Part shown: positions 8,671 through 21,587 of the stretch, in pieces
How positions within the stretch are numbered: position 1 is the stretch's first letter
Layout: the number at the start of each line of letters is the position of its first letter
Assembly (NCBI GenBank): GCA_902797225.1
Contig: CADBSD010000086.1
Coordinates: forward strand, 8,498 to 32,497
Length of the DNA: 24,000 nucleotides
From: an uncultured Ruminococcus sp.
Lineage (GTDB): Bacteria; Bacillota; Clostridia; Oscillospirales; Acutalibacteraceae
Reading direction: 5' to 3'
Program-made: the position numbers and the translations under genes
Notes under the pieces: model-generated
What the model was told of the DNA's origin: nothing
Databases searched by the model: none
The model's input: only the letters and a program-made list of their open reading frames with translations

Positions 8671-9528
8671 GTGAATGAACTGACAGGTTTTATTATGAAC
8701 GGTATTTACAGAAAAAAAGCTATAAAAAACGCGTATTCGACAGAACAGCTTGACAAAGCTATTGTAATATCTTCCCCTCTTTCGTGGCTTGGGATAATCG
8801 GCGTTTTGGTGTTTATTACCGCGGTTATCACCTGGTCTGTTTTTACAACAATTCCGACGGTAGTTAACACAAAAGGAGTATACACCGAAAAGGCGGATTT
8901 ACTTGCAGTTAATTCAGATTGTTCGGGAATTATACAGAAATACTTTATTCATTCGGGCAGCATTGTCAAAAAAGGCGATGTTATCGCTGAAGTTAAAACA
9001 AACACGGGGGAACTAAGAAAGCTAAAATCAAGTTACGACGGTACAATCAGTAGTGTTTTACTAAATGATAATGATGTTGTATATTCTTCGGACGAGCTTA
9101 TCAGAATAACTCCCGAGGACATCCCCGAAAACTGCGTCGTATGTTATCTGCCTTTATCGCAAGCCGAATATATTAAAGAAGGAATGAGCGTTACGCTTTA
9201 CCCAAACCTTAATTATTCCGTTAACGACGCTCATCTGAACGGTGAAATCAAGTATATTGCAAAGTATCCCGCCGACGAGAAAAACACATCTTTAATTCTA
9301 GGCAAAAACAGCGGTCTAAAAAGAATGCTTCTGAAAGATGAGGCGGTTATTGAAGCCGTATGTAAGATAAATAACAAACACGATAAAGATAAATATATTA
9401 CCAATGACAATAAAAGAATTATACTAAAAAACAAATCCGTTCTCTCTTTAAGAATCGTTACCGAAAACACTCCGCCTATTAACAAGCTTTTTAGTTTTAG
9501 TGAAAACCGTGGTGGCGACAATGAGTAA
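8671..9528 (+). CDS. HlyD-family membrane-fusion/secretion adaptor of the NHLM (NHLP/Nif11) bacteriocin export system (TIGR03794-like)
   Basis: The N-terminus MNGIYRKKAIKNAYSTEQLDKAIVISSPLSWLGIIGVLVFITAVITWSVF matches the family pattern: F-R-K-x-A-l-x ... S-x-E-q-L-D, then a single TM helix. A lipoyl-like hairpin is present (GIIQKYFIHSGSIVKKGDVIAEV). The ORF opens at GTG 8671, but ATG 8695 (MNGIYRKK) is the more likely start. It is short (277-285 aa) for a HlyD protein and has little coiled coil. Confidence 0.85.
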   Translation: MNELTGFIMNGIYRKKAIKNAYSTEQLDKAIVISSPLSWLGIIGVLVFITAVITWSVFTTIPTVVNTKGVYTEKADLLAVNSDCSGIIQKYFIHSGSIVKKGDVIAEVKTNTGELRKLKSSYDGTISSVLLNDNDVVYSSDELIRITPEDIPENCVVCYLPLSQAEYIKEGMSVTLYPNLNYSVNDAHLNGEIKYIAKYPADEKNTSLILGKNSGLKRMLLKDEAVIEAVCKINNKHDKDKYITNDNKRIILKNKSVLSLRIVTENTPPINKLFSFSENRGGDNE

Positions 9529-11659
9529 CTACGTTAAGACGCCTGTCGTTTTTCAGAGCGAAGCTTGCGAGTGCGGAGCGGCTGCGCTGACTTGTGTGCT
9601 GTACTATTTTGGCAGATACACGCCTTTGGAAAAGGTACGCGAGGATATCGGAATATCAAGAGACGGATGCAGCGCTGGAAGTATAATGAGAACGGCGAAA
9701 AGCTACAACTTACACTGTCACGGATACCGAAAAGAAACAGAAGATTTAAAAACAATTAAAACACCCTGTATTCTGCATTGGAATCTCAACCATTTTGTGG
9801 TTTTTGAGGGCTTTAAAGGGAAATTCGCCTACATAAACGATCCCGCGCTCGGGAATCGAAAGCTTAGCTTTGAAGAACTTGACAACTCGTTCACGGGAAT
9901 AGTGCTGACCTTTTCCCCTAACGCGGAGTTTAAAAAAAGCAAAAAGCCTCATACATTCTTTAAATTCGCTAAAGAACAGCTTAATACAAATTCAGAAACT
10001 GTTGCAAAGCTGTTTATTATAAACGCGTACCTGGTATTCACGGGGTTAACCCTTCCATTGTTATCAAGAGTATTTATCGACGATGTTCTTGTAAGCAAGA
10101 GCTATGAAGTATTTTCTTGGATAGCGTTTATTATCATCTCCTGCATTATTTTGCAGTTTATTCTTAACATTTACCAAACGACTTTACTTGCAAAATTCAG
10201 AAAAAAGCTTGTACTTTTAACGAGCAAAAAATTTCTTACGCGCTTGTTTGATTTACCGCTTAATTTTTTTGAATACAGATTCGCGGGAGATTTAGCTCAG
10301 AGAGTAAAGAATATTCAAGCCGCCTGTTCTTTTGTTTCAGACGAAACGGCGAGTATATTTTTTGATATAATTATCGCGGTTTTTTATTTTATTGTAATGA
10401 TTATATACAGCCCTATTCTCAGCTTAGCGGCTCTTTTATGCGCGGCTGTAAATTTTATCATTATTAAAACATCGTCAAATTCGCTTTCGGAAAAATCAAT
10501 CAGATTACAAAAAGATACGGGAGTTTTATTAGGCGTATTGTATTCGGGAATTAATTCAATAAAAAATGTAAAAGCGTCGGGGATTGAGCCTGATCTAACC
10601 AAAAAAATCCTCGGATATAACGCTGAACTTCCTCAATCACGCCAAAAATTAGCTCGTACGCAAAACATAATTGACACTTTAACAGAATTCAACAAAAACC
10701 TTTTTGACGTTATCGTTTTAACCGCGGGAGGAATAATTGTAATAAACGGTAATATGAGTATAGGAACACTCGCTGCGTTCGGTATACTTTTAACCCTGTT
10801 TAATCAGCCGATAAGCAGACTTATTTCTGTTTTACAAAAAGTTCAAACGGTAAAATCAGATATTAACCGTACAGACGATATAATGAATTGTAAATCAACC
10901 GGCGATATTGATTTCCCTATAAAAAACGACTTTTTAAAAACAATCAACGGTAACGTCGAACTAAAAAACGTATCATTCGGCTATAGAAAAAACTCAAATG
11001 CTGTGGTATCTGATATAAGCATTGATATAGAATGCGGTTCAAGCGTCGCCATAGTAGGAAAATCGGGCTCAGGAAAATCCACAATCATTAATCTTATAAG
11101 CGGTCTTTATACGCCTTGGAACGGCGAGATTAAATATGACAACATAAACATTAAAGCGTTAAATAAAGAAACTAAGAGCGTTAATGTTTCGGTAGTAAGT
11201 CAGAGCGCTTCCCTATTTCCGTATACAATAAAAGAAAACATTAAAATGTTCAACGAAAGTATAAGCGAGGTGGATATGGTAAGGGCGGCGAAAGACGCGT
11301 GTATTCACGACGAAATACTTAATAAACGCGGGGGATACAATTACCCGCTAAGCGAAAACGGGTCAAACCTCTCGGGAGGTCAGCGCCAAAGACTAATGAT
11401 AGCACGCGCGCTCGCTTCTAATCCCGCTGTCCTTATTATGGACGAAGCGACAAGCTCAATTGACGCTGATACGGAAAAAGAAATACTAAAGAATATAAAA
11501 AGACGCGGTTGTACATTTATATCAGCGGCGCACAGACTAAGCGCTATTAAAAACTGCGATAGAATCATAGTAATCTCCAACGGTAAGATTGTTGGAGAAG
11601 GAACTCACAGCGAGCTTTACAAATCCAACGAGTATTATCAAAAACTTATCAAAAACTAA
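9500..11659 (+). CDS. C39-peptidase-domain ABC exporter (double-glycine leader-cleaving peptidase/permease/ATPase; TIGR03796-like)
   Basis: C39 motifs: oxyanion Gln and catalytic Cys in VVFQSEACECGAAALTCVL, His in HWNLNHFVVFEG, Asp in INDPA. Six-TM ABC exporter core. Walker A GKSGSGKST, signature LSGGQRQR, Walker B LIMDEATSSID, H-loop SAAHRLS. The probable true start is ATG 9521 (MSNYVKTPVVFQ), overlapping the upstream stop by 8 nt. The ORF-track start at 9500 is a GTG. Confidence 0.95.
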   Translation: MKTVVATMSNYVKTPVVFQSEACECGAAALTCVLYYFGRYTPLEKVREDIGISRDGCSAGSIMRTAKSYNLHCHGYRKETEDLKTIKTPCILHWNLNHFVVFEGFKGKFAYINDPALGNRKLSFEELDNSFTGIVLTFSPNAEFKKSKKPHTFFKFAKEQLNTNSETVAKLFIINAYLVFTGLTLPLLSRVFIDDVLVSKSYEVFSWIAFIIISCIILQFILNIYQTTLLAKFRKKLVLLTSKKFLTRLFDLPLNFFEYRFAGDLAQRVKNIQAACSFVSDETASIFFDIIIAVFYFIVMIIYSPILSLAALLCAAVNFIIIKTSSNSLSEKSIRLQKDTGVLLGVLYSGINSIKNVKASGIEPDLTKKILGYNAELPQSRQKLARTQNIIDTLTEFNKNLFDVIVLTAGGIIVINGNMSIGTLAAFGILLTLFNQPISRLISVLQKVQTVKSDINRTDDIMNCKSTGDIDFPIKNDFLKTINGNVELKNVSFGYRKNSNAVVSDISIDIECGSSVAIVGKSGSGKSTIINLISGLYTPWNGEIKYDNINIKALNKETKSVNVSVVSQSASLFPYTIKENIKMFNESISEVDMVRAAKDACIHDEILNKRGGYNYPLSENGSNLSGGQRQRLMIARALASNPAVLIMDEATSSIDADTEKEILKNIKRRGCTFISAAHRLSAIKNCDRIIVISNGKIVGEGTHSELYKSNEYYQKLIKN

Positions 11660-11670
11660 GAGCGGTATTT

Positions 11671-14241
11671 ATGGACAATAAAACTATACTTCTCGAAAGC
11701 GGGAAGAATTATATTAGTACAAATGAATATGACGCTTTCAGAGTTAAAAGCGGTACAGTTCTCGTTTATATCGTTCCTGTTAAAAACGGTAAATCAGGGA
11801 GGAAAAAGCTTATTTACGAGGCAATTGAGGGTGATGTTATCCCCTCTTATGTTTACAAAGACCTTGAGTATAATAGTTTCAGGTTTTGTTTTTCCGCTTT
11901 AGACTCAGCGCAATTAGATGTTATGAGCAACTGCTCAACCAATATATTACGGGAAAAATTCGCAAAAAAAATCGGCTTGGATATTTCGAGCGCCTCACAG
12001 TTTTACGAGGCTCTTGCCGAAAGCTACAGGATGTCCTCCGTTTTGGAGATGGGAGCGGTTAAACGCAAAGAGAATAATAATCAAAGCGTTAAAAAAGGAA
12101 TTATTTCTTCAATAATAAACGCATTTAAAAAGAACCGCAAATACTATACGATACCCAACACCGAAAATGAGCTATATAATGCCGCGGCTTTAATATGCAA
12201 ACAAGAAAACATACCTATAGCAAGTTATGAAGCGGTTAAGTCCTATACGGATAAAAACGTTAGAATTGACGATATAGCAAACAGCTCGGGTTTTGTATAC
12301 AGAGAAATATCGCTCAATAAAAACTGGTACAAAGAGAATATGGGTTCTTTTATCGCCTTTAATAAATCAGGAAAGCCTATAGCCTGTATTTCTAAATCCG
12401 CTAATTCTCACGTCTTTTATAACAAAGAGAATAATAAATTTCAAAAAGCGGATAAAAGCTTCGCCGAAACAATAGAAACAAAAGCATATATACTGTACCG
12501 TCCTTTACCGCCCGAAAGGCTTCAAAAAAGCGATTTAATAAAATTCTGTATAAAAAGCTTAAAGCAATCGGAATTAATCAGACTAATACTTTTATCTATG
12601 ATAATAGCGGTAATCGGACTTTCTCTTCCTGTTTTTTCACAGATTATTTACGATGATCTCATACCGCTTGAAATGAAAAACAATTTACTTAAAATTGGAT
12701 TTACTCTCGCGGTGTTCGCGATAGCAAGCGCGGCGCTGTCGCTTGTTAAAAGGTTTTCGCTTTTCACAACGACTTACAAAATCGCGCTTGATTTTCAAAA
12801 CGCTGTATTTCATAGGCTTATTAATCTGCCTCAAAGTTTTTTTGATAAAAATAATACGACAAAATGTGCTGTCGGAGCTTTTAACTCGGGAGCTTTAGCC
12901 GAAACAATATCGGGCGAAATAATATACTCAGTTATCTGTATTCTTTTTGCCGTTATTTATTTTATTTCGATGATAACCGTCTCCCCTGTTTTAAGCTTTA
13001 CCGCTGTTCCCGCTGTTATTGTTTACATACTGCTGTATTCAATTATTTCCAAAGCTTTTATAAATGAAGAAAAACAAATAGAAAAATACGAAACTCAAAA
13101 CAACTCAATAATATATCAATTTATTCTTTCAATTTCGGAAATAAAAAATTCCGAAGCAAAAGAAAAAGCTATTCTTAAATATTTAAAATCTTATATTACG
13201 GAAGCTAATCACAGAGAAAAAGCAAGCCGGATAAAAGGCGTATCCATAGCTGTTACACTTGCGTTCAACGGGTTGATTACTCTTTGTTTTTACACGGTAT
13301 GTACAGTGTTAAGGATTGATATAAGCGCGGGCTCTTTTATATCTTCTACGACGTTATTCGGCGTATTCTCGGCTTATGTCACACAGATTATAAACAGCAT
13401 AGTAAATATAAAGGCTCAAACACCTTATATGCAGCGCACAAAAATAATTCTGGACGAACTCCCCGAAAATGAAAACGATAAAATAATCCCGCATAATTTA
13501 AGCGGAGATATTTATATTAATAATCTTAGCTTCCGCTATTACGGTGAAAATGACAAAACGCTTAAGAACATAAGTATAAATATTAAAAGCGGTGAATATC
13601 TCGGCATAGCGGGAGCTTCGGGAAGCGGTAAATCTACTCTTATCAATCTTTTGCTCGGCTTTTACAGCGACTATAACGGCGAAATACGTTATGACGGTTA
13701 TAATATTAAAGAGTTGAACAAACAAAAACTTAGAAAAAATATGGGCATTGTTCTTCAAAACGATACACTTTTACCTGACACGATTCTCCGTAATATATCC
13801 GTGAATTCTCCCGAAGCTTCAATAAACGATGTGAATAAAATCACGGATGAACTGGGATTATCGGAAGATATTAAAAAAATGCCTATGGGATTATACACAT
13901 TACTTAACGAAAACTCTACCACAATTTCCGAAGGGCAAAAGCAAAGAATATTACTGTGCAAAGCATTATTATCTAATCCCAAAATAATAATACTTGATGA
14001 ATCCACATCTTCACTCGATAACGAATCTCAACAGCTTATTCTGAATGCCCTTAAAAAAAGAACAGCTACAAAAATTGTAGTCGCGCAAAGACTAAATACA
14101 CTTATTGACTGCGACCGAATAATCGTTATAAAAGACGGCGAAATAACGGAAACAGGACGCTATAAGGATTTAATTAATAATAAATCAGGCGAGTTTTATA
14201 AACTGGCACAAAATCAGATTGACGATATTGATGAAAGGTAA
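11671..14241 (+). CDS. Second NHLM-system ABC exporter permease/ATPase lacking the peptidase domain (TIGR03797-like), with ~300-aa N-terminal extension
   Basis: 856 aa. TM exporter core from about aa 300. Walker A GASGSGKST and Walker B IILDESTSSLD are canonical. The signature is ISEGQKQR (not LSGGQ) and the H-loop reads VVAQRLN (Gln where His is expected). The N-terminal part (FRVKSGTVLVYIVPVKNGKSGRKKLIYEAIEGDVIP) looks like a cNMP-binding-type beta-barrel by eye. An 11-nt gap separates it from the upstream gene. Confidence 0.92.
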   Translation: MDNKTILLESGKNYISTNEYDAFRVKSGTVLVYIVPVKNGKSGRKKLIYEAIEGDVIPSYVYKDLEYNSFRFCFSALDSAQLDVMSNCSTNILREKFAKKIGLDISSASQFYEALAESYRMSSVLEMGAVKRKENNNQSVKKGIISSIINAFKKNRKYYTIPNTENELYNAAALICKQENIPIASYEAVKSYTDKNVRIDDIANSSGFVYREISLNKNWYKENMGSFIAFNKSGKPIACISKSANSHVFYNKENNKFQKADKSFAETIETKAYILYRPLPPERLQKSDLIKFCIKSLKQSELIRLILLSMIIAVIGLSLPVFSQIIYDDLIPLEMKNNLLKIGFTLAVFAIASAALSLVKRFSLFTTTYKIALDFQNAVFHRLINLPQSFFDKNNTTKCAVGAFNSGALAETISGEIIYSVICILFAVIYFISMITVSPVLSFTAVPAVIVYILLYSIISKAFINEEKQIEKYETQNNSIIYQFILSISEIKNSEAKEKAILKYLKSYITEANHREKASRIKGVSIAVTLAFNGLITLCFYTVCTVLRIDISAGSFISSTTLFGVFSAYVTQIINSIVNIKAQTPYMQRTKIILDELPENENDKIIPHNLSGDIYINNLSFRYYGENDKTLKNISINIKSGEYLGIAGASGSGKSTLINLLLGFYSDYNGEIRYDGYNIKELNKQKLRKNMGIVLQNDTLLPDTILRNISVNSPEASINDVNKITDELGLSEDIKKMPMGLYTLLNENSTTISEGQKQRILLCKALLSNPKIIILDESTSSLDNESQQLILNALKKRTATKIVVAQRLNTLIDCDRIIVIKDGEITETGRYKDLINNKSGEFYKLAQNQIDDIDER

Positions 14242-14244
14242 GGA

Positions 14245-14562
14245 TTGTTTATGAGAAGTGATAATAAGCTTTTAGAATTAACGGGTAAGGTATTGTCGAA
14301 TAACGACAGCGCAGAGAAACTGACTAAAGTAAAATCTATATCGGATATTAAAAAAATATTCGAAAATAACGAAATCAAAATAACGTCCGAAGAAGTTGAG
14401 CGAATCGGCATTCTTCTGAATAACGATGAGCTAAACGAAGAAATGCTTGATACTGTAAACGGCGGCGGCGCTGTGGAGATGATTATTCTCGGCGGAGTTT
14501 TAGTCAGCTTAGCGGCAGTCGGCGCGTGCAGAGCGGCTTATTTGAGCATAAAAAAGGATTAA
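14245..14562 (+). CDS. Nif11-like leader, double-glycine precursor peptide (TIGR03798-like) with hydrophobic 31-aa core
   Basis: The likely start is ATG 14251 (AGGA RBS at 14241-14244, 6-nt spacer). The track start at 14245 is a TTG. The 72-aa leader MRSDNKLLELTGKVLSNNDSAEKLTKVKSISDIKKIFENNEIKITSEEVERIGILLNNDELNEEMLDTVNGG follows the Nif11 leader pattern, ending in (E/D)-L-x-E-E-x-L-x-x-V-x-G-G. The predicted core (nt 14467-14559) is GAVEMIILGGVLVSLAAVGACRAAYLSIKKD. The gene sits directly after its cognate three-gene exporter. Confidence 0.85.
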   Translation: MFMRSDNKLLELTGKVLSNNDSAEKLTKVKSISDIKKIFENNEIKITSEEVERIGILLNNDELNEEMLDTVNGGGAVEMIILGGVLVSLAAVGACRAAYLSIKKD

Positions 14563-14571
14563 TGTAAACTT

Positions 14572-14934
14572 ATGGAAAGAAATTACGAAAAAAACTCTCT
14601 TATAATCAGAGATAGCAACGGAGATTTTAAGCTAAGCATTTCAACAAAATACAATAATGATTCATCGCTGATTAAAGTATCGGGCGAGTTAAGTTCTGAT
14701 GTTTCTCACGATTTTGAGGATGAGCTTATGGCGGTTGTCACCGTACGCGATAATATAGATTTGGATTTATCTGATGTCACAAAAATATCGTCAGTCGCTT
14801 TAAGAGCGCTGTTATCAGCTCAACAGATTATTGACGAGAGAGATAACGCGTCGCTTAGAATACTAAATATGAGAAAAGAAGTTTTAGGCTTTTTTGAGGA
14901 AAAGGGCTTTGACGATCTTTTTATTATTGTCTGA
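14572..14934 (+). CDS. STAS-domain protein (SpoIIAA/RsbV-like anti-sigma-factor-antagonist fold)
   Basis: 120 aa. IKVSGELSSDVSHDFEDELMAVV...IDLDLSDVTKISSVALRALLSAQQII...LRILNMRKEVLGFFEEKGFDDLFII matches the STAS layout. Ser73 (nt 14788-14790) aligns by eye with the phosphorylated Ser of the SpoIIAA D-S-S-G motif. No RsbW/SpoIIAB-type kinase or sigma factor is nearby. Confidence 0.8.
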   Translation: MERNYEKNSLIIRDSNGDFKLSISTKYNNDSSLIKVSGELSSDVSHDFEDELMAVVTVRDNIDLDLSDVTKISSVALRALLSAQQIIDERDNASLRILNMRKEVLGFFEEKGFDDLFIIV

Positions 14935-14961
14935 CAAAAGATTTAACAGGAAAATATAAAA

Positions 14962-15846
14962 ATGAACCAATACAATCCATATAAAATATATGAAGGAAAT
15001 GAAAACTACATATTCTCAAGCTACTCACACAAGGACGAAGACAGAGTCATCAGGATATTAGAACAGCTCGCGAAACACGGATGCCGATTATGGTATGACA
15101 ACGGTATTAACGCGGGAAGCAACTGGCCCGAGGTTATCGCTGGACATCTGAATAATTGTAAGGTGTTTTTATCTTTTATTTCTAAAAACGCGGTTAATTC
15201 TCATAACTGCAGACGGGAAATAAACTTTGCCGTACTTAAGAAAAAAACTATTATAACCGTCTTTTTGGAAGATACGGTTTTATCCCCCGGTATGGAAATG
15301 CAGCTTTCAACTATGCAGTTTATAGAAAAGTACAAGCTCTCGGACGAGGAGTTTTACGAAAAACTTTTAGATAACAAAAAGATAAAAGAATGTATCGGAA
15401 AGCCTGATAAGAATATAAAAATTCCTAAAGGTATAAATCACGAGCCGCAAAAAAGCTATGATAACCTATGGCTTAGTAAAGAATACACAGGCGAAAAAGA
15501 TTTTTATTTTATAAAAAATACTGTTTTCTATTTAATACGAAAAAATACAGGCGAAAAGATAAGAATAAATCCCGAGGGATTTAACATAGGCAGAAAATCG
15601 GAATTTTGTGATTATACAATCAACGGCAACAAAACCATAAGCCGACTTCACGCCACAATGAAAATCAGAAATGAAAAATGTATTATTTATGACCACGATT
15701 CGCTTAACGGCGTATATGTAAACGGCGAGGCTATAACGCCGAATACCGAAACAGAGCTTATCGCTCACGATGAAATCAGGCTGGGAAGCGAAAAATTTAT
15801 ACTTGTTTCAGATGAAGAAGAAAGCATAGAAAACACGGAGGAATAG
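14962..15846 (+). CDS. TIR-domain / FHA-domain fusion protein
   Basis: N-terminal TIR_2-type domain (aa ~15-104): YIFSSYSHKDEDRVIRILEQLAKHGCRLWYDNGINAGSNWPEVIAGHLNNCKVFLSFISKNAVNSHNCRREINFAV. The glutamate at the usual catalytic position is E86, nt 15217-15219. C-terminal FHA domain (aa ~188-282): G210-R211, S227-R228-x-H230, N249-G250 (FNIGRKSEFCDYTINGNKTISRLHATM...DSLNGVYVNGEAI...IRLGSEKFILV). No TM helix or signal peptide. AGGAAA RBS. Confidence 0.88.
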   Translation: MNQYNPYKIYEGNENYIFSSYSHKDEDRVIRILEQLAKHGCRLWYDNGINAGSNWPEVIAGHLNNCKVFLSFISKNAVNSHNCRREINFAVLKKKTIITVFLEDTVLSPGMEMQLSTMQFIEKYKLSDEEFYEKLLDNKKIKECIGKPDKNIKIPKGINHEPQKSYDNLWLSKEYTGEKDFYFIKNTVFYLIRKNTGEKIRINPEGFNIGRKSEFCDYTINGNKTISRLHATMKIRNEKCIIYDHDSLNGVYVNGEAITPNTETELIAHDEIRLGSEKFILVSDEEESIENTEE

Positions 15847-15847
15847 A

Positions 15848-17782
15848 TTGGGTAGATTCTGTTTTAATTGTATGATGCCCGTAAACAAAGATAAATGCGG
15901 ACATTGCGGATATACACAATTTAATAAAACTCCAGCGCATCATTTACTCCCCTCCACCATACTTAACAACCGTTATTATATAGGCAACGCTATAGGACAG
16001 GGCGGTTTCGGAATTACATATATAGGACGAGATTTAAACCTTGATATGACAGTTGCGGTTAAGGAGTTTTTTCCTAACGGATACGCAAACCGCAACAATA
16101 ACGCTTCACCGGAAGTGGAAGTATCAGGGGCTAAAAACATAGAGTTTTTTAATTCTGGAAAAGAAAAATTTATACGCGAAGCAAAGCTTCTTGCAAAGTT
16201 CTCAGGCAACAAAAGCATTGTTTACGTAAGAGATTATTTTGAAGAAAATAATACCGGATATATTGTAATGGAATATGTAAGCGGTGAAACTCTTACAAAG
16301 CACATTAAAACTCAAGGAAGATTCAATCCAAATAATCTCCTGGATAAAATGCTTCCGCTGTTCAGCGCGCTCGGCAAAATCCACAAAAGCGGACTTATAC
16401 ACAGAGATATCAGTCCCGACAACATTATGCTGCTGAGCGACGGCACATTAAAGCTTATGGATTTCGGAGCGGCAAGGTATATTAATTTTCTCGACAATCA
16501 CACAATGTCGATTATGTTTAAACCCGGTTACGCTCCCGAGGAACAGTATCGTCAAAAAGGCTCCCAGGGCTCCTGGACGGATGTTTACGCGATTTGCGCG
16601 ACTATGTACAAGTGTATAACAGGAGAAACTCCCGATGATTCTATGGAACGAGCTTTTAAGGATAATTTTAAAAAGCCGTCATTATTGCGCCCTGATATTT
16701 CAAAAGAATACGAGGAAGTTCTTCTTAAGGGAATGGCGGTTTATAAAGAAAACAGATTCCAGACTATGGAGGAATTATCCGCGGCGTTTTTAAAAGCTAC
16801 GGGAAAACACTACTCTGATTTGTCAGAAAACAATTCACAAAACTCCTACTCCCCTATAGATTTCGAAAATGATAAAACAGAGTTTTATTCAGCGGACGAG
16901 GACGATGATACCGAATACTACGAAGAAACCATAAATAAACAATCCGATGAAGAAATAAGTAATTCAAAAGAATCTACATCAGAAAAGAGAATTAAAAAAA
17001 GCAGAAAAAAGCTTTACATAATACTAATCGTGATTATAATCACAGCTTTTATCGGATTCTATTATCAATATGAGAAATCCACATATGTAAAAACACCTAA
17101 TCTCGTAGGTTTAGAAAAAGCGAAAGCGGAAAACAAATTAAAAGCAAAAGAGCTTAAATTCATAGAAAAGCTTGACTATTCCGATACTGCTGAAAAGGGC
17201 GATGTTATTTCGCAAAGCCCTCAGAAATTCAGGCAGATTAAAAAGGGCTCAACCGTAGTATTAGTTATCAGCAACGGAAAGCTGGTTACGGTTTCCGATT
17301 ACAAAAATCTTTCTTTATCAAAAGCAAAAAAGCTCATATCAAATTCAGGGCTAAAGATAAAAGTTACGAAAAGAACGTTTTCGGAGAAGATTAATAAAAA
17401 TCATATTTTAACACAATCTCCTAAAGGCGGAACGGCTTTACCCGAGGGCAGTACTGTTTCAGTCGAAATAAGCAGGGGCAAAAGAAAATATAAAGTTCCT
17501 AACCTTATAGGAAAGAATTATAAATCCGCTTTAAAAGCGTTAAAAATCTTTAGAACAGAAATTGTATATGAATACAGCAGTGAAACGGAAAATACCGTTA
17601 TAAAACAATCTCCCGAAAAAAACACCAGGCTTACAAAAAATTCAAAAATTACCCTAACAGTAAGCAAAGGCCCCGCTCCGACTACACCTCCTGCTACAGC
17701 GACAGTTCCGCGGGTTCGTTACACCACACCAACGAAAAAGAATACACAAAAATCTTTCAGCGGTTTAAATATTGACTCATAA
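15848..17782 (+). CDS. Hanks-type Ser/Thr protein kinase with N-terminal zinc ribbon, one TM helix and three extracellular PASTA domains
   Basis: The TTG start sits 1 nt after the upstream stop, with GGAGG 6 nt upstream. Zn ribbon CFNC-x9-CGHC. Kinase motifs GQGGFG, VAVK (K72), HRDISPDN (D187), DFG (D205), GYAPEE. TM helix LYIILIVIIITAFIGFYYQY (aa ~389-407). Three PASTA repeats (VKTPNLVGLEKAKAENKL..., VTVSDYKNLSLSKAKKLI..., YKVPNLIGKNYKSALKAL...). Thr/Pro-rich tail. No PP2C phosphatase gene is adjacent. Confidence 0.93.
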   Translation: MGRFCFNCMMPVNKDKCGHCGYTQFNKTPAHHLLPSTILNNRYYIGNAIGQGGFGITYIGRDLNLDMTVAVKEFFPNGYANRNNNASPEVEVSGAKNIEFFNSGKEKFIREAKLLAKFSGNKSIVYVRDYFEENNTGYIVMEYVSGETLTKHIKTQGRFNPNNLLDKMLPLFSALGKIHKSGLIHRDISPDNIMLLSDGTLKLMDFGAARYINFLDNHTMSIMFKPGYAPEEQYRQKGSQGSWTDVYAICATMYKCITGETPDDSMERAFKDNFKKPSLLRPDISKEYEEVLLKGMAVYKENRFQTMEELSAAFLKATGKHYSDLSENNSQNSYSPIDFENDKTEFYSADEDDDTEYYEETINKQSDEEISNSKESTSEKRIKKSRKKLYIILIVIIITAFIGFYYQYEKSTYVKTPNLVGLEKAKAENKLKAKELKFIEKLDYSDTAEKGDVISQSPQKFRQIKKGSTVVLVISNGKLVTVSDYKNLSLSKAKKLISNSGLKIKVTKRTFSEKINKNHILTQSPKGGTALPEGSTVSVEISRGKRKYKVPNLIGKNYKSALKALKIFRTEIVYEYSSETENTVIKQSPEKNTRLTKNSKITLTVSKGPAPTTPPATATVPRVRYTTPTKKNTQKSFSGLNIDS

Positions 17783-17796
17783 AAAAGGAGTTTTAA

Positions 17797-20235
17797 ATGA
17801 AAAACTTAAAAAGAGTAATATGTATCTTTATTTGCACACTGATACTTTCATCACTTTTTACAATGAATTATTACGCGCTTGAACAGAACGAAACATACAG
17901 CGGTACTACAGGCGATTGCGCCTGGGAATATAATCCCGATACAACAACAATTACCATATCAGGCGCAGGCAATATGGCTGATTATACGGGAGCTGATTTA
18001 CCGCCTTGGAATTGTTTTAGAGAAGAAGTGAAAAATGTTATTATTAATAACGGAGTAAAAAGCCTTGGGGGATATTCCTTTTATATGTTTTCAGCTCTGG
18101 AAAACGTATCCTTTCCCGATACTTTGGAAGAGATACACTCGTCAGCTTTCAGAGCCTGTTCATCGCTTAAAGAACTAAATATTAATAACAAAGTCCATTT
18201 TATTGAATACGGAGCGTTTTCGGATTGCGATAATCTGGAATCCATTCATTTGCCTGTTAATTTATCTACTCTGCAAAACGGTGTGTTTTTCAATCTTCCA
18301 AAACTGAAATCCATCTATATTCCCTATAACGTCAACGCTCTTTATACTACTTTCAATAACTGTCCTTCGCTTACAACCGTACATTTATCCTCTAAAACAG
18401 CGCTTACAAACAACGAAAACCAAAAGGTTTTTATGAATTGTAATAATATAAGAGATGTATATTATTACGGTAAACTAACTGAGCTGAGAAAAGAACAGTT
18501 AGCAAATGAACCTGATTTCGCAAACGCGACATTTCATTACATCAATGATATACAATACGAGGATGAGGGTGACTCGGCAAGCGGTACAACAGGCGACTGC
18601 GTATGGGAATATGATTCAAAGACAAGAACGCTGACCATATCTGGAAACGGTCGAATGGAGGATTATGACGAACTGGAAACAAGACCATGGAATGACTATG
18701 AAATGAAAATAATAAAAGTAGTTTTCAAAGAAGGCGTTAAACATATCGGACGAAATTCATTCACATTCTTTTCAAATATAGAAAACGTCAGATTTTCAGA
18801 CAGTGTAGAAAGTATAGGAGAATACGCTTTCCAATCATGCTCGTCTTTGGAATATATTAAAATCACAGAAAATATTACACAAATTGACAACGGAGCGTTT
18901 ATGTGGTCGGGAATAAAAAAAGTTGACCTTCCTGATAACATAGAATTTTTTGGAAACTGGTTTGAAGGATGTTCCAATCTTAAAACCTTTAAGATACCAA
19001 ATAGTTTAAACTGCATTCCCTGTGATTCTTTTCAGTATTGCCGTGGTCTTAAAGCTATTTCTTTTGGCAATAACATAAAGAATATAGGTAATAACGCTTT
19101 TGGCAACTGCACCTCACTCACAGATATTTACTTTATGGGTACAGAGGAAGATTGGGATAATATCGAAATAGAGGAATCGGAAAACGAATACTTTTTAAAC
19201 TCAACTGTACATTTCAATGAGGAGATGCCTACTGAGTTTATTCCTATCGAAACAACATCAGCCGCACCTGAAACAGTAGAAAATACAACTAACGCTTCTG
19301 AAACAACTACTTCTCTTGAAACTACTACAGAATATATAACAGAACCTCCTGAAAGCACTGTACCTGAAACAACGTTTAATTTCGTAACCGATCCTTTAGA
19401 AACCACCGTTATCGAAACTACCGCGGAAATTGTTACCGAACCCGAGGAAACCACAATAGAGTTTATTCCCACAACCCCCACGACAACCACTGAAATCACC
19501 ACTTCACCTGTAATAAGCACTGAAGCACCGACAATTTTTACAGAACCGAACACCTCCTATGTTTCCAAGGAATTAACAACAGCTTTTGAGCAAACTACTT
19601 CGCCTGTAATAATCCCTACAGAAAGCTTTACAACGATAGTTCCTACGTTGCCGATTATAACCGAACCTGTTGAAACTAAACCGTATACCATCGCTCCAAA
19701 GAACAAAACGGTTAAAAAGAAAACACAAAGCATTATCGCGAAATCGTATTCGGCTGTACCAAAGAGCAAGCCGTTCACAATAAAAGCGAAAGCAAAAGGT
19801 AAGATTAGCTTTTCTACAAAATCAAAAAAAATAATTACGCTTACGAAAAACGGTAAGGTAACTGTCAAAGCTATAGGCATAGCATATATCAAGATTCATG
19901 CCGCGGGTAATAAGCTTTACAAATCCGCCGATAAAACAATTAAGGTAATTGTAAGGCCGCCACAGCTTAAACTGCTTTCTAAATCGGGTGGAACAAACAA
20001 GAAATACACGATTTATTTCAAGAAAATACCGAATGTTTCGGGGTATGAACTTCTCTATAAAGCAAAGGGTGAAAAGAAATATAAAAGAATTCTCGCAAAT
20101 AAAAACGACAATAAATTTGTCATTAAAAATCTTAAATATACAAAACATACAATAAAATCAAGAGCATATAAAAAAATATCAAAGATTAAATTATACGGCG
20201 CGTTTACTAAAGCGTCCTTTGGTCCGTCGGCATAA
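17797..20235 (+). CDS. Secreted BspA-type leucine-rich-repeat surface protein with Thr/Glu/Pro linker and Lys-rich Ig-like plus FN3-like C-terminal modules
   Basis: AAGGAG RBS, and a 14-nt gap after the kinase gene. Signal peptide MKNLKRVICIFICTLILSSLFTMNYYA. Two duplicated ~230-aa LRR modules each open with SGTTGDC[AV]WEY...T[IL]TISG.G.M.DY. Linker ETTSAAPETVENTTNASETTTSLETTTEY... (nt ~19240-19700). C-terminal KGKISFSTKSKKIITLTKNGKVTVKAIGIAYIKIHAAGN (Ig-like), then an FN3-like segment. No LPXTG motif. Confidence 0.9.
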   Translation: MKNLKRVICIFICTLILSSLFTMNYYALEQNETYSGTTGDCAWEYNPDTTTITISGAGNMADYTGADLPPWNCFREEVKNVIINNGVKSLGGYSFYMFSALENVSFPDTLEEIHSSAFRACSSLKELNINNKVHFIEYGAFSDCDNLESIHLPVNLSTLQNGVFFNLPKLKSIYIPYNVNALYTTFNNCPSLTTVHLSSKTALTNNENQKVFMNCNNIRDVYYYGKLTELRKEQLANEPDFANATFHYINDIQYEDEGDSASGTTGDCVWEYDSKTRTLTISGNGRMEDYDELETRPWNDYEMKIIKVVFKEGVKHIGRNSFTFFSNIENVRFSDSVESIGEYAFQSCSSLEYIKITENITQIDNGAFMWSGIKKVDLPDNIEFFGNWFEGCSNLKTFKIPNSLNCIPCDSFQYCRGLKAISFGNNIKNIGNNAFGNCTSLTDIYFMGTEEDWDNIEIEESENEYFLNSTVHFNEEMPTEFIPIETTSAAPETVENTTNASETTTSLETTTEYITEPPESTVPETTFNFVTDPLETTVIETTAEIVTEPEETTIEFIPTTPTTTTEITTSPVISTEAPTIFTEPNTSYVSKELTTAFEQTTSPVIIPTESFTTIVPTLPIITEPVETKPYTIAPKNKTVKKKTQSIIAKSYSAVPKSKPFTIKAKAKGKISFSTKSKKIITLTKNGKVTVKAIGIAYIKIHAAGNKLYKSADKTIKVIVRPPQLKLLSKSGGTNKKYTIYFKKIPNVSGYELLYKAKGEKKYKRILANKNDNKFVIKNLKYTKHTIKSRAYKKISKIKLYGAFTKASFGPSA

Positions 20236-20236
20236 G

Positions 20237-20271
20237 AAAATCTCGGAACAATTCAATGTTCCGAGATTTTT
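20237..20271. terminator. Bidirectional rho-independent terminator between convergent operons
   Basis: Perfect 14-bp stem AAAATCTCGGAACA (20237-20250) / TGTTCCGAGATTTT (20257-20270) with the 6-nt loop attcaa. A-run and T-run flanks give a U tail in both orientations. It starts 1 nt after the LRR gene stop and ends 9 nt before the histidine-kinase stop. Confidence 0.85.
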
Positions 20272-20279
20272 CTATTTAT

Positions 20280-21587
20280 CTATAAACCTGTACTTAAGGA
20301 AACGATAACCGAAAAATCATCTCCGTTTAACTCCGTCGCAACCTCTCCGTTATATTTTTCACTAATGTCCTTTAATATTTTTAGTCCGTTTCCTCTTCCT
20401 TTTTGTTTAGGTTTATTTTCTATCGGGTTGGTTTTATTAATTGTTTTAATGTATATAATTCCGTCGCTTTCCCGACACGAGATTATTAAACTCTTTTTAT
20501 CTCCGTGATAGTTTTCCAGAGCTTCAATACTGTTATCAATCAGATTAACGAAAACTCTGCACAAATCAATATCATCTATTCCGCAATTATCCCGCAAAAT
20601 TATATTGTATGTTACGGAAATATTATTTTCATACGCGGAAGTCAACTTATCGTAAATGATAAGATTTACGAGCTTGTTTTCACAAACCGCGGGAATCCTT
20701 GTTTTTTCCGTGGTTTCCTTAAGCTGTTTAGTAAGCTCTTTTGCTTCTTTACCGCTCGTTTCATTACCCTCAGCTACAAGCGCCTCAACAACCGAAATAA
20801 GATTATTTATATCATGTCTGAGCTTTACTGTATCATCAACACTTTTTTGAATCTTCGCGTAATACTTAGCTTGTATTCTGTTTTCGGCTAAAAGCACCTC
20901 ATTTTCGGCTTTAATTCTCTCAAGCTTACTGTTATTGCGTGTAAAAACAAATGACATTATATCAAGAAAAACAAAACCAGATAATGTAGCGGCTATTATA
21001 CTTAACTTAGAAATCAAAGCCATATTATTATTGCGTTCAAACAAGATTAGAAAAATAACCGAAAGAATAATTATCTGGGCGTAAATTATCGTAAGAAAGG
21101 CGGAGCTGTTTGTAAAAAGAGTATCACTCACTTTTTCAGAATTTGCTTTCAACCAAATGATTGTTATCACGGACATAATAAAAAGCATCATAAAAAAGTA
21201 AAACGCGCAAACATAATACTGTTTAAAATAATCTTCAACTTCTAAGCCCAGCGAAAAAACAGAATAAGTAATTAAATCCGTTATAAACCAAGAAAAAATC
21301 GCGAGAGCCGAAAAAACAAGTTTTCTTATAATATTATCTTTAAAACATATTATTACCCAAACGGCAAATAAATAAAACTCAACGAACTCAAGTATTTCGC
21401 TTTTAAAATCAAGACGCATATGAATGGTACTGAAAAACCAGACAGAAACCGATGAAACAATAATTATATACTTGTTACACCTCGGCTTTAACACCATAGT
21501 AGCAGCAGTCGCCATAAAAAGAAAGACAATTAACAGCAAAAAGCCCTCGTTTTTTACGCTTTGAGTATTTTGTAAAAAAGTATGCAT
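20280..21587 (-). CDS. AgrC-like (HPK10 family, GHKL) membrane sensor histidine kinase
   Basis: 435 aa. About six or seven N-terminal TM helices. H-box TVKLRHDINNLISVVEAL, N-box VFVNLIDNSIEAL, G-box KGRGNGLKILKDISEKY. It lies immediately downstream of a LytTR response regulator, the typical peptide-sensing pairing. Confidence 0.88.
   Translation of the reverse strand: MHTFLQNTQSVKNEGFLLLIVFLFMATAATMVLKPRCNKYIIIVSSVSVWFFSTIHMRLDFKSEILEFVEFYLFAVWVIICFKDNIIRKLVFSALAIFSWFITDLITYSVFSLGLEVEDYFKQYYVCAFYFFMMLFIMSVITIIWLKANSEKVSDTLFTNSSAFLTIIYAQIIILSVIFLILFERNNNMALISKLSIIAATLSGFVFLDIMSFVFTRNNSKLERIKAENEVLLAENRIQAKYYAKIQKSVDDTVKLRHDINNLISVVEALVAEGNETSGKEAKELTKQLKETTEKTRIPAVCENKLVNLIIYDKLTSAYENNISVTYNIILRDNCGIDDIDLCRVFVNLIDNSIEALENYHGDKKSLIISCRESDGIIYIKTINKTNPIENKPKQKGRGNGLKILKDISEKYNGEVATELNGDDFSVIVSLSTGL

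Follow-up and report, generated by a model that had tools for sequence, protein, structure and literature searches.

A TIR-FHA fusion protein encoded with a receptor Ser/Thr kinase in a peptide-export operon of an uncultured Ruminococcus sp.

The window analyzed in this study is a 24,000-nt stretch of DNA from an uncultured Ruminococcus sp. (contig CADBSD010000086.1, positions 8,498 to 32,497). It contains an operon of eight genes, in which a putative NHLP/Nif11-type ABC export cassette is combined with genes for a double-glycine peptide, a STAS protein, a TIR-FHA protein, a kinase and an LRR protein, followed by a single terminator. The genes and features are listed below with their coordinates in the window.

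8671..9528, + strand: HlyD-like membrane-fusion/adaptor protein, first gene of the operon (Pfam HlyD_3 and Biotin_lipoyl)
9500..11659, + strand: C39-peptidase ABC exporter (PCAT) acting on double-glycine peptides, which it cleaves and exports (Pfam Peptidase_C39, ABC_membrane and ABC_tran)
11671..14241, + strand: second ABC exporter subunit, ABC2 (TIGR03797 match)
14245..14562, + strand: double-glycine precursor peptide (weak Pfam Bacteriocin_IIc match; homologous peptides in the corresponding place of related loci)
14572..14934, + strand: STAS-domain protein, directly upstream of the TIR-FHA gene (Pfam STAS_2 and STAS)
14962..15846, + strand: TIR-FHA protein of 294 amino acid residues (ATG open reading frame; Pfam, homologues, AlphaFold2)
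15010..15387, + strand: TIR domain, residues 17-142 (Pfam TIR_2, AlphaFold2 model, Foldseek)
15505..15831, + strand: FHA domain, residues 182-290 (Pfam FHA, Foldseek, PDB profile match)
15838..15842, + strand: GGAGG ribosome-binding site (Shine-Dalgarno) of the kinase gene, within the 3' end of the TIR-FHA open reading frame (direct sequence reading)
15848..17782, + strand: receptor Ser/Thr kinase (Pfam Pkinase and three PASTA matches; weak DZR match)
17797..20235, + strand: BspA-type LRR surface protein, last gene of the operon (Pfam LRR_5; syntenic position in the related loci L005 and L084)
20236..20271, + strand: intrinsic-terminator-like hairpin with a 15-bp stem and a T-run, which closes the operon (sequence)

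Similar to the NHLP/Nif11 cassette (TIGR03794/TIGR03796/TIGR03797), the operon encodes an HlyD-like protein, a C39-ABC exporter and a second ABC exporter beside a long-leader double-glycine peptide. These three models scored best, yet all matches were below their curated cut-offs. The HlyD-like protein matched TIGR03794 (NHLP secretion protein) partially with 95.5 bits (cut-off 156), PCAT matched TIGR03796 with 811.6 bits, slightly under the cut-off of 853, and residues 166-850 of ABC2 matched TIGR03797 with 587 bits (cut-off 709). Different from the NHLP/Nif11 cassette, ABC2 possesses an extra N-terminal beta-rich domain (approximately residues 1-120). A C39-like domain lies ahead of its transmembrane domain. 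The N-terminal domain was kept in all cassette loci and had neither a Pfam nor a PDB sequence match. In a profile comparison with the cNMP-binding domain of E. coli CRP, the expected barrel region was aligned at a probability of 0.5%, which is not significant; a cNMP-like receptor for a TIR product is a speculative role for it. The precursor peptide contains a long Nif11-like leader that ends with LDTVNGG and a hydrophobic, cationic core of about 30 amino acid residues. It did not match TIGR03798; its homologues in the related locus L004 include one peptide that weakly matches Pfam Nif11. No modification enzyme was found in the export cassette, and an ECF-type sigma factor is encoded at the head of the cassette in some relatives only. 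The addition of STAS, TIR and kinase genes was not described in the account of NHLP/Nif11 export (Haft et al., 2010; PMC2887384).

The context of the TIR-FHA gene is a bacteriocin-type peptide-export operon, not a phage-defence locus or island. A preliminary description of this DNA, made from its letters alone, had missed the peptide-export genes. The invariant residues of the STAS protein were E49-D50-E51, Q84 and G38, and no Ser or Thr that could serve as a conserved phospho-acceptor was invariant across its relatives. Partner switching of the SpoIIAA/RsbV type was rejected, as the operon contains no GHKL anti-sigma kinase and the STAS protein lacks an invariant Ser/Thr. When the STAS protein or the alignment of the ABC2 N-terminal domain was used as query, homologue searches returned almost no matches.

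In the TIR-FHA protein, Pfam TIR_2 matched residues 17-136 (E = 2.4e-20; 73.7 bits, gathering score 28) and Pfam FHA matched residues 208-275 (E = 3.1e-14; 53.6 bits, cut-off 20.7). AlphaFold2 predicted two confident domains, TIR at residues 17-142 and FHA at residues 182-290, with a disordered linker (residues 153-185) between them. The model of the TIR domain by itself had a pLDDT of 87 and a pTM of 0.85, and its strands (residues 17-20, 43-45, 68-73, 96-101 and 119-122) with helices between them form a flavodoxin-like fold. Foldseek matched this model to the TIR domains of SPARTA, SARM1, TLR15, MyD88 and RPS4; the query-normalized TM scores were 0.69-0.75 for the SPARTA TIR chains and 0.52-0.63 for SARM1. 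Cat1 was the top PDB profile match of the TIR domain (E = 3e-9), followed by BtTir (7UXR). Both Pfam domains were present in all 120 of the best homologues listed, and a chance co-occurrence of motifs was rejected. The preliminary description had read the protein as a genuine TIR-FHA fusion and had proposed structure prediction and superposition as a check; the Pfam matches, the homologues and the predicted folds all bear it out, with the TIR model matching SPARTA and SARM1 and the FHA half matching known FHA domains. The motifs that it quoted, Y16-IFSSYSHKD25, W44-Y-D46, C83-R-R-E86-INFA, G210-R211, S227-R-L-H230 and N249-G250, are all present. The best explanation of this two-domain fusion is, tentatively, a soluble adaptor-effector.

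The pocket residues of the TIR domain are S20, D46, G52, W55, S80 and E86. In ungapped profile alignments, E86 (codon 15217-15219) was aligned with the catalytic Glu of Cat1 (E74 in CWDE74L) and of BtTir (E230 in TEYE230L), which agrees with the catalytic position proposed for it before. Profile alignment and published residue roles placed S20, D46 and S80 at the positions of Cat1 S7, D33 and S68, respectively, and G52 corresponds to the BB-loop Gly of AbTir (G174), an essential residue. Among 42 TIR-FHA proteins, S20, D46, G52 and S80 were invariant or conserved in at least 97% (41/42), and E86 was kept in 41. E86 was also found in all 24 TIR domains of the wider subfamily, in which C83 and S80 were likewise invariant. 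The TIR domain has in common with Cat1 (CARF-TIR), SPARTA TIR-APAZ, SARM1 and AbTir/BtTir the fold, the Glu at the catalytic position and the Ser, Asp and Gly of the pocket. It is a member of a Clostridia-specific subfamily in which the NAD+ pocket known from proven TIR NADases is retained, and is probably NAD-cleaving. Against an enzymatic role, TLR15 aligns as CQYEL, so that TLR TIRs, which are not known as NADases, also keep the Glu. A motif search of the supplements of Weagley et al. (2022) identified one member of the subfamily, a TIR-TM-LRR protein listed for human gut metagenomes in Table S1. The searched file of TIR domains with group assignments gave no member, and no assayed member was found in these supplements.

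The previous claim of intact catalytic residues held for the Glu and for the pocket Ser, Asp and Gly, but not for the aromatic residue four positions before E86. This position, W204 in AbTir and W638 in SARM1 (the WxxxE motif), is occupied by N82 (codon 15205-15207), and was Asn in 41 of the 42 sequences. The alpha-C aromatic residue is found in all cyclase TIRs and is needed for cyclization to cADPR isomers; mutation of the Trp lowered the NADase activity of AbTir and SARM1 and abolished that of the plant TIRs L6 and ROQ1 (Manik et al., preprint). Because the cyclization aromatic is replaced by N82, at most NAD+ hydrolysis, and no cyclase activity, is predicted for the TIR domain.

The TIR domain also possesses a family-specific invariant helix, G110-M-E112-M-Q-L, and the invariant polar residues H81, N82, R84, R85, E112 and Q114, which are family-specific and not found in characterized NADase TIRs. 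An enzyme of another chemistry or substrate would account for these unusual S-H-N-C-R-R-E and G-M-E-M-Q-L motifs; it might be an N-glycosidase acting on another nucleotide, a 2',3'-cNMP synthetase or nuclease, a base-exchange enzyme or a transferase of ADP-ribose to the peptide or the STAS protein. The loss of the Trp also argues against standard cyclase chemistry, and three nucleotide N-glycosidases (BcmB, MilB and DNPH1) scored close to the TIRs when the TIR model was searched with Foldseek. However, these N-glycosidases have the same superfold as TIRs, so the fold matches do not discriminate, and the sequence profile groups the protein with bona fide TIRs rather than with deoxyribosyltransferase-like enzymes. 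As no alternative substrate has direct support either, we consider a different chemistry improbable.

The phosphothreonine-binding residues of the FHA half are R211 (15592), S227 (15640), R228, H230 (15649), S247 and N249 (15706). G210, R211, H230, S247 and N249 were present in all 42 TIR-FHA sequences. Of the FHA signature reported earlier, R211, S227, H230 and N249 are thus in place, but the Ser is not a constant of the family: the position of S227 was Ser in 24 and Gly in 17 of the 42 sequences, which counts against phosphothreonine reading, and the Gly of the NG pair (G250 here) was mostly Lys in relatives. Foldseek matched the FHA domain to FhaA/Rv0020c, GarA, EmbR, DgcB and CEP170 (target-normalized TM 0.75-0.90; rmsd 1.1-2 A), in line with the 11-strand beta-sandwich of FHA domains; structures with a phosphopeptide were among these matches. 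The FHA domain of DgcB (6hc0/6hc1) was its top PDB profile match (E = 5.5e-13), and those of Rv1747 were also among the PDB matches. The FHA domain is predicted to read phosphothreonine.

The stop codon of the TIR-FHA gene ends at 15846, one base before the TTG start codon of the kinase gene at 15848, and the ribosome-binding site of the kinase lies inside the TIR-FHA open reading frame; the kinase is translationally coupled to TIR-FHA. It consists of an N-terminal CxxC..CxxC zinc ribbon, a Hanks domain, an acidic juxtamembrane segment, a transmembrane helix at about residues 389-406 and three PASTA repeats. Its catalytic loop is an atypical HRDISPDN (residues 185-192), for which a literature search on the HRDISP loop returned nothing relevant; the canonical catalytic-loop Lys is missing from it, so that the kinase is a putative enzyme, which counts against a phosphorylation-based model. 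The juxtamembrane segment contains T344 (16877) and T355 (16910) in the motifs DK-T344-EFY and DDD-T355-EYY, respectively, which are the predicted ligands of the FHA domain. Acidic juxtamembrane T-x-[FY]-[YIM] motifs are common to close relatives and recognizable in the closer relatives only. The Thr of the nearly invariant T90-x-x-L93 in the ABC2 N-terminal domain was rejected as an FHA site; it is also kept in cassettes without a TIR-fused FHA and was read as structural. Identity of the kinase with the housekeeping PrkC/Stk1/PknB was rejected as well, given its score of 348 bits against NCBIfam PknB_PASTA_kin (NF033483; cut-off 450), its HRDISPDN loop in place of HRDxKxxN and its neighbors, which are TIR-FHA and LRR genes and not the PrpC phosphatase.

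Local HMM typing of 256 fetched relatives identified 146 TIR-FHA, 75 TIR-FHA-FHA and one TIR-FHA-FHA-FHA proteins, so that the survey for the same architecture proposed in the preliminary description gave at least 220 fusion sequences among those fetched, a lower bound of family size; 3,384 clusters (50% identity) scored E <= 1e-30. A Hanks kinase gene was found within the fetched flank of 14 of 17 TIR-FHA loci and of 4 of 63 loci with an FHA-less TIR (Fisher p = 1.2e-9). No kinase was nearby in the other 3 TIR-FHA loci or in the related locus L086. Four more metagenomic loci were consistent, with the kinase adjacent in three. A PP2C phosphatase gene was found in 8 of the 17 TIR-FHA loci and not in the 24,000-nt window. 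This conserved neighborhood, along with the translational coupling, upholds the functional link that had been proposed from the one-nucleotide spacing. Moreover, the partner kinases all belong to one family, with a zinc ribbon, G[EQ]GGFGITY, HRDISPDN and GYAPE motifs and swapped ectodomains, which argues that TIR-FHA and the kinase are a dedicated pair. A STAS gene lay directly upstream of the TIR gene in 14 of the 17 TIR-FHA loci and in 10 cassette loci with an FHA-less TIR. In addition, FHA-ABC fusions adjoin TIR-FHA in L004 and L039, and TIR and FHA are separate neighboring genes with a PP2C gene alongside in three loci. The FHA-less members of the subfamily consist of an N-terminal TIR, one transmembrane helix and an LRR, RCC1 or TPR ectodomain. 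In about 50 of them, stand-alone TIR-TM-LRR proteins with no cassette, STAS gene or second TIR nearby, the TIR is the sole cytoplasmic domain. This architecture suggests that the TIR receives extracellular input either by direct fusion or via kinase, phosphothreonine and FHA. TIR-FHA is a large, uncharacterized family, and its wiring is widespread and conserved.

We propose that TIR-FHA is a phosphothreonine-recruited, proximity-activated TIR at an activated kinase, and assign this model as a whole a probability of about 0.45. The co-translated receptor kinase would sense an extracellular cue via its ectodomain, which is PASTA here and LRR in relatives; the PASTA ectodomain suggests a cell-wall or muropeptide signal. 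The kinase would then phosphorylate Thr residues, the best candidates being T344 and T355 of its own juxtamembrane segment, and the FHA domain would dock onto the resulting phosphothreonines. Docking would concentrate the TIR domains at the membrane, where self-association may complete a two-subunit active site and allow NAD+ hydrolysis. This hydrolysis would be expected to release ADP-ribose and nicotinamide, not a cyclic ADPR isomer, since Asn occupies the position required for cyclization. In relatives, the PP2C phosphatase may reset the switch. Finally, the module would be tied to the double-glycine peptide exporter through the adjacent STAS protein, and such wiring makes it most likely that the output controls, or responds to, envelope stress and the export of bacteriocin-type peptides; phage defence is a less likely output. 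The model offers no explanation for the role of the STAS protein, which counts against it, as does the lack of a conserved phospho-acceptor in that protein.

In Cat1, SPARTA, SARM1 and the AbTir/BtTir class, a sensor domain drives TIR oligomerization into a composite active site. The sensor is CARF, Argonaute or ARM in known TIR NADases and an FHA phosphothreonine reader here. Other differences are the Asn in place of the alpha-C Trp (AbTir W204), the extra invariant G-M-E-M-Q-L helix and the location in a peptide-export operon instead of a defence locus; the activity of the TIR domain is a prediction. Similar to the arrangement proposed for TIR-FHA, DgcB of Bdellovibrio joins an FHA domain to a nucleotide-processing enzyme, which is regulated when the FHA domain binds a phosphorylated peptide. 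In DgcB, however, the output domain is GGDEF rather than TIR, the FHA domain is N-terminal, and there is no operon with an exporter, STAS protein or receptor kinase.

In type VI secretion, the membrane Hanks kinase PpkA, the PP2C phosphatase PppA and the FHA scaffold Fha1 are encoded with the machine for antibacterial cargo. The related loci of this study appear to share this gene grammar of kinase, PP2C, FHA and secretion, by analogy. Different from type VI secretion, the machine is a PCAT/ABC peptide exporter of Gram-positive Clostridia, a TIR is part of the FHA protein, and STAS is an additional constant partner. The threonine phosphorylation pathway of type VI secretion was itself rejected for the window, which has the kinase and FHA but no PP2C and encodes an ABC/PCAT apparatus. 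Relays from a Hanks kinase to an FHA domain are also found in Rv1747 of M. tuberculosis (kinase PknF), GarA/OdhI, EmbR and FhaA, whose FHA domains are close structural matches. One of these relays controls an ABC exporter, Rv1747 itself, in which the FHA is fused to the transporter. None of these proteins has a TIR.

With the matching type VI grammar, and Rv1747 as a precedent for FHA-regulated ABC export, the TIR domain might alternatively be a non-enzymatic assembly scaffold, TIR-FHA working like Fha1. The kinase and PP2C would set its phospho-dependent docking, and TIR-TIR or TIR-STAS contacts would assemble or gate the PCAT/ABC exporter, which would switch peptide export post-translationally. 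The position of the gene within the exporter operon, straight after the STAS gene, and the WxxxE motif without its Trp are consistent with such a scaffold, and many TIR domains are pure adaptors (PMC7075850). However, a scaffold hardly explains why the invariant Glu, Ser, Asp and Gly lie exactly at the NAD-pocket positions of Cat1/AbTir. As the sole cytoplasmic domain of the stand-alone TIR-TM-LRR relatives, the TIR there must itself be the output, and the window contains no second TIR protein. We therefore regard a scaffold as unlikely, although less so than a different chemistry.

Anti-phage abortive infection, in which the kinase would sense infection and depletion of NAD+ by the TIR would kill the cell or stop its growth, appears improbable. 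TIR NADases are typical defence effectors, and the nearest neighbors of this TIR in sequence or fold are Cat1, SPARTA, SARM1 and ThsB. In PADLOC, the kinase matched the PD-T4-6 and MADS6 kinase models and the TIR weakly matched the ThsB and PDC-S66 models; Pfam ThsB_TIR was also matched weakly (23.7 bits). The kinase matches, however, are generic Hanks-domain similarity. As for ThsB of Thoeris, the TIR here is fused to FHA and lacks the aromatic needed for a cyclic signal, and membership in Thoeris was rejected, as no ThsA (SIR2/SLOG or Macro) was found in the open reading frames of the window (Pfam, PADLOC and NCBIfam) or in related loci. No ThsA-like partner, other defence gene or defence island was found in the window or in 21 related loci; the neighbors are exporter, peptide, STAS and housekeeping genes. 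Moreover, the sensors, PASTA or LRR past a transmembrane helix, are extracellular, and an external cue fits them better than an intracellular phage. Finally, 50,697 phage and 72,556 plasmid records contained no full-length homologue, with partial single-domain matches only.

The preliminary description had held that this wiring differs from that of known TIR systems, and our literature searches agree: none such was described, the strings TIR-FHA and FHA-TIR did not occur in a full-text search, and nothing relevant was found on TIR-FHA fusions or on combinations of STAS, TIR or Nif11. As far as could be found, the kinase-linked TIR-FHA wiring is apparently undescribed; its components are known and their combination here is new. 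The triggers of bacterial TIR enzymes known so far are nucleotides, nucleic-acid-guided complexes or the sensing of phage proteins. If the phosphothreonine-recruited TIR model is true, a surface receptor kinase acting by Ser/Thr phosphorylation would be a new input to TIRs. The model would link three well-studied modules, Hanks kinases with FHA domains, TIRs and PCAT exporters, and would bear on the first coupling of TIRs to receptors and kinases. It also points to a possible role of TIRs outside phage defence, in peptide export and envelope sensing of abundant uncultured gut and rumen Clostridia. A bolder extension, which we consider a long shot, is that STAS, TIR-FHA and kinase form a new non-immune TIR pathway. 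Thr phosphorylation would turn an extracellular cue into local TIR activity; the STAS protein or the extra N-terminal beta-barrel of ABC2 would then sense an ADP-ribose-type product or the consumption of NAD+ itself, which would gate the secretion of bacteriocin-like peptides. Taken with the sister TIR-TM-LRR proteins, this would imply that surface receptors of gut Clostridia signal into the cytoplasm through TIR domains, as in Toll-like receptor logic but in bacteria and with a kinase and an FHA domain placed in between.

The ORF at 14962–15846 (+) encodes 294 amino acid residues, in which Pfam identified a TIR_2 domain at residues 17–136 (E = 2.4e-20, 73.7 bits) and an FHA domain at residues 208–275 (E = 3.1e-14, 53.6 bits), both far over the curated cut-offs. 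The TIR-FHA fusion proposed in a preliminary description was thus confirmed, and all the sequence strings quoted there were found in the protein with the same numbering. AlphaFold2, run with 42 homologues, predicted both domains confidently, separated by a disordered linker (residues 153–185); the TIR-only model had a pLDDT of 87 and a pTM of 0.85. The TIR model matched SPARTA TIR-APAZ (TM 0.69–0.75), SARM1, TLR15, ThsB and MyD88, and the FHA model superposed on the solved FHA domains of FhaA/Rv0020c, GarA, EmbR, DgcB and CEP170 with rmsd values of 1.1–2 Å. A transmembrane (TM) helix is absent from all TIR-FHA proteins. Residues G210, R211, H230, S247 and N249 of the FHA domain were found in 42/42 sequences. 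The protein itself possesses the full canonical set of phosphothreonine-binding residues attributed to it; across the family, 24 of the 42 sequences have Ser at position 227 and 17 have Gly, and the Gly of the 'NG' pair is mainly Lys.

When PDB sequences were searched with a profile built from 24 TIR domains of the protein's subfamily, the matches were Cat1 (E = 3e-9), BtTir (7UXR, 3e-6), TLRs, MyD88 and AbTir, with no gaps around helix alpha-C. S80-H-N82-C-R-R-E86 was aligned with S68-D-W-C-W-D-E74 of Cat1 and K-N-W-T-E-Y-E230 of BtTir, placing E86 at the position of the catalytic Glu (E230 in BtTir, E208 in AbTir), as had been suggested. By these sequence-profile alignments, which are not superposed coordinates, S20, H23, D46, S80 and E86 are the putative counterparts of S7, N10, D33, S68 and E74 that line the NADase site of Cat1, and G52 that of the essential G174 of AbTir. 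All six were invariant or almost so across the relatives aligned. The family also has its own invariant helix, G110-M-E112-M-Q-L. The aromatic position four residues before the Glu (W204 in AbTir, W638 in SARM1), however, is N82 in 41 of the 42 sequences. The earlier claim of apparently intact catalytic residues therefore stands for E86, S20, D46, S80 and G52, but not for the alpha-C aromatic residue. An aromatic residue is present at this position in every cyclase TIR; W204A lowers cyclisation by AbTir, and the corresponding plant TIR mutants are inactive (Manik et al.). Given N82, the TIR is predicted to be at best a plain NAD+ hydrolase that makes no cADPR isomer. W55, at the position of AbTir L177, likewise a base contact, might make up for N82. 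That the TIR of TIR-FHA proteins carries out a different chemistry is improbable.

A word-indexed sequence search returned 237 matches, of which the best 120 all contained both Pfam domains, originated in gut and rumen metagenomes and bore, if the source named them at all, no other name than 'TIR domain-containing protein'. When 1.84 billion cluster representatives were searched exhaustively with HMMER, 3,384 of them matched at E ≤ 1e-30. Typing of 256 fetched sequences with local TIR and FHA HMMs identified 146 TIR-FHA, 75 TIR-FHA-FHA and 1 TIR-FHA-FHA-FHA proteins, some 15 TIR proteins that have a TM helix and about 15 proteins with 2–5 tandem TIR domains. The tandem copies belong to the same TIR subfamily (P0134, P0158, P0234, P0255 and others), and some of these polypeptides have a TM helix. 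When each species was represented by a single genome, scanning found 79 loci, nearly all in Clostridia MAGs (Ruminococcaceae, Oscillospiraceae and Lachnospiraceae) with a few in Coriobacteriia. The nearest relative, from Ruminococcaceae bacterium UBA2854, was 69% identical.

The TIR-FHA gene is part of an operon at 8671–20235 whose genes share a strand, are separated by short gaps and are followed by a single strong terminator-like hairpin (20236–20271). The operon genes, in order, and the downstream regulators are:

Gene 1, +, HlyD-like adaptor
Gene 2, +, C39-peptidase ABC exporter
Gene 3, from 11671, +, second ABC exporter (ABC2)
Gene 4, 14245–14562, +, double-glycine (GG) peptide, 105 aa
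Gene 5, +, STAS protein
Gene 6, 14962–15846, +, TIR-FHA
Gene 7, 15848–17782, +, PASTA receptor kinase
Gene 8, 17797–20235, +, BspA-type LRR surface protein, 812 aa
Downstream, 20280–21587, −, AgrC-like histidine kinase
Downstream, 21657–22364, −, LytTR response regulator

The kinase starts at TTG 15848, one base past the TAG stop of TIR-FHA as previously noted, and its ribosome-binding site (GGAGG, 15838–15842) lies within the TIR-FHA ORF. The NHLP/Nif11 export cassette models (Haft et al.) scored best on the three transport genes, under their trusted cut-offs. Residues 1–165 of ABC2 (11671–12165) form an extra beta-rich N-terminal domain outside the coverage of TIGR03797 that is kept in every cassette locus. 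Its pattern F-x-V-x-x-G-x-V-x-V-Y...G-R...Y-E-A..G-x-V-I-P resembles a cNMP-binding barrel; Pfam, PDB and hhalign searches gave no significant match. The peptide core past the GG site (AVEMIILGGVLVSLAAVGACRAAYLSIKKD, encoded within 14245–14562) is almost identical in loci L005 and L006, and other loci have similar leaders with quite different hydrophobic, cationic cores. No modification enzyme was found near the precursor gene, so the products are likely to be class II-like peptides or signals that stay unmodified. LRR surface proteins are plentiful in the region: besides gene 8, a giant ORF of 2,349 aa with BspA-type LRRs (1184–8233, −) diverges from the operon. Domain scans of the window ORFs found no PP2C, second TIR or ThsA-like gene. 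Thoeris was ruled out, as ThsA is lacking.

ORFs were called in all loci and searched with the window proteins. The recurring order was HlyD-like, C39-ABC, ABC2 (again with the extra domain), between one and three Nif11-like GG peptides, STAS, TIR-FHA, often PP2C, and kinase (L004, L005, L007, L010, L011, L015, L027); shorter contigs held the cassette in part, and Pfam-annotated metagenomic contigs were consistent. Among 17 distinct TIR-FHA loci, a Hanks kinase lay within 3 kb in 14, STAS directly upstream in 14, PP2C in 8 and the ABC2 cassette in 8 (several contigs being too short to tell). The kinase was found in only 4 of 63 loci in which the TIR carries no FHA (Fisher p = 1.2e-9), which extends the kinase linkage noticed in the window to the family. 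Neighbours were detected by single-sequence phmmer (E ≤ 1e-4), which makes all these counts lower bounds, and many contigs are short. In L004 (152–670), L086 (2145–2666) and L087 (1262–1789), the first gene of the cassette, in one operon with STAS, encodes an ECF-type sigma factor (Sigma70_r2/r4); the window and L084 have the AgrC-like kinase and LytTR regulator downstream instead. Such a pair frequently regulates peptide-bacteriocin loci. Transcriptional control thus varies between loci while the STAS/TIR core stays. FHA-ABC_tran fusion genes similar to Rv1747 adjoin TIR-FHA and kinase in L004 (12693–14207) and L039 (2935–5262), a second FHA-to-ABC link.

The partner kinases form one family with an N-terminal CxxC..CxxC zinc ribbon, G[EQ]GGFGITY, HRDISPDN, DFG and GYAPE in common; the window kinase was rejected as housekeeping PrkC. 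Ribbon and catalytic loop are kept across loci, while the ectodomain is exchanged, being PASTA in the window, L005 and L084 and LRR in L004 and L087. The loop (residues 185–192, nt 16400–16423) has Ser for the Lys of canonical HRDxKxxN, and with this Lys missing the kinase may not be fully active. An acidic juxtamembrane motif, D-x-T-x-[FY]-[YIM] (T344 and T355 in the window), is common to the closer relatives (L005, L006, L001, L004). FHA domains commonly prefer a hydrophobic residue at +3, which fits T344 and T355 as candidate docking phosphosites.

A further 50 or so members of the TIR subfamily begin with the TIR, followed by one TM helix (within residues 170–400) and a large C-terminal region (L016:9983–12622, L018:2123–4495, L020:5880–8327, L029:9909–12629, L033:9941–12094, L073:9980–11569 and about 45 further loci among L030–L083). 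The subfamily, marked by S-x-N-C-R-R-E ... G-M-E-M-Q-L, takes this form in most cases, and the form is common in gut and rumen Clostridia MAGs. LRR (internalin-/BspA-type), RCC1 or TPR repeats formed the C-terminal region in 8 of the 10 proteins scanned; of the other two, one had a C-terminal region without any recognised domain, and L025 had FHA without a TM helix. The TIR-TM-LRR layout resembles that of Toll-like receptors in reverse order, with the cytoplasmic TIR N-terminal; no description of it was found in the literature searched, and one member is included without comment in a table of TIRs from gut metagenomes. Some of these TIR-TM proteins lie in the same STAS and ABC cassette, where no kinase accompanies them (L016, L017, L029, L055), and L019, L022 and L024 combine a short membrane-anchored TIR with a separate FHA gene and PP2C.

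The best-supported model, with a probability of about 0.45, is a kinase-FHA-TIR relay with NAD+ hydrolysis. A ligand, in the PASTA version a cell-wall fragment, would switch on the receptor kinase, which would phosphorylate its juxtamembrane Thr residues; the FHA domain would dock there, and the locally concentrated TIRs would assemble and complete an active site made up by two subunits, as those of AbTir, Cat1, SARM1 and SPARTA do. The assembled TIR would hydrolyse NAD+, and PP2C would reset the system. The combination of kinase, PP2C, FHA and secretion appears closest to the T6SS threonine-phosphorylation pathway, and a non-enzymatic scaffold gating export, similar to Fha1/PpkA/PppA, is an unlikely but appreciable alternative. 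In stand-alone TIR-TM-LRR proteins, however, TIR is the sole cytoplasmic domain and must itself be the output, which speaks for an enzyme rather than a passive adaptor. Phage abortive infection, slightly less probable even than a different TIR chemistry, is weakened by the extracellular sensors, the non-defence neighbourhoods and the absence of full-length homologues from the phage and plasmid collections searched.

STAS is a constant neighbour of the TIR gene wherever the cassette occurs and is missing from stand-alone TIR-TM-LRR loci. Thus, it is more likely a link between TIR and exporter than a general TIR inhibitor. E49-D50-E51, Q84 and G38 are invariant, and no conserved phospho-acceptor was found in the STAS proteins compared. 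The locus does not fit classical partner switching, as GHKL anti-sigma kinase and conserved phospho-Ser are both lacking.

The closest known relatives are Cat1, SPARTA, SARM1 and AbTir for the TIR half, DgcB, GarA, FhaA and Rv1747 for the FHA half and the NHLP/Nif11 cassette for the exporter. Full-text literature searches turned up no account of a TIR-FHA fusion in bacteria or of this cassette. The comparative evidence for linkage is strong, and that for TIR catalysis and physiological output is indirect. The parts are all known; their wiring is new. Together with the TIR-TM proteins, it reads as the same cytoplasmic TIR being fed an extracellular signal in two ways, by ectodomain fusion or by a receptor kinase-phosphothreonine-FHA relay.
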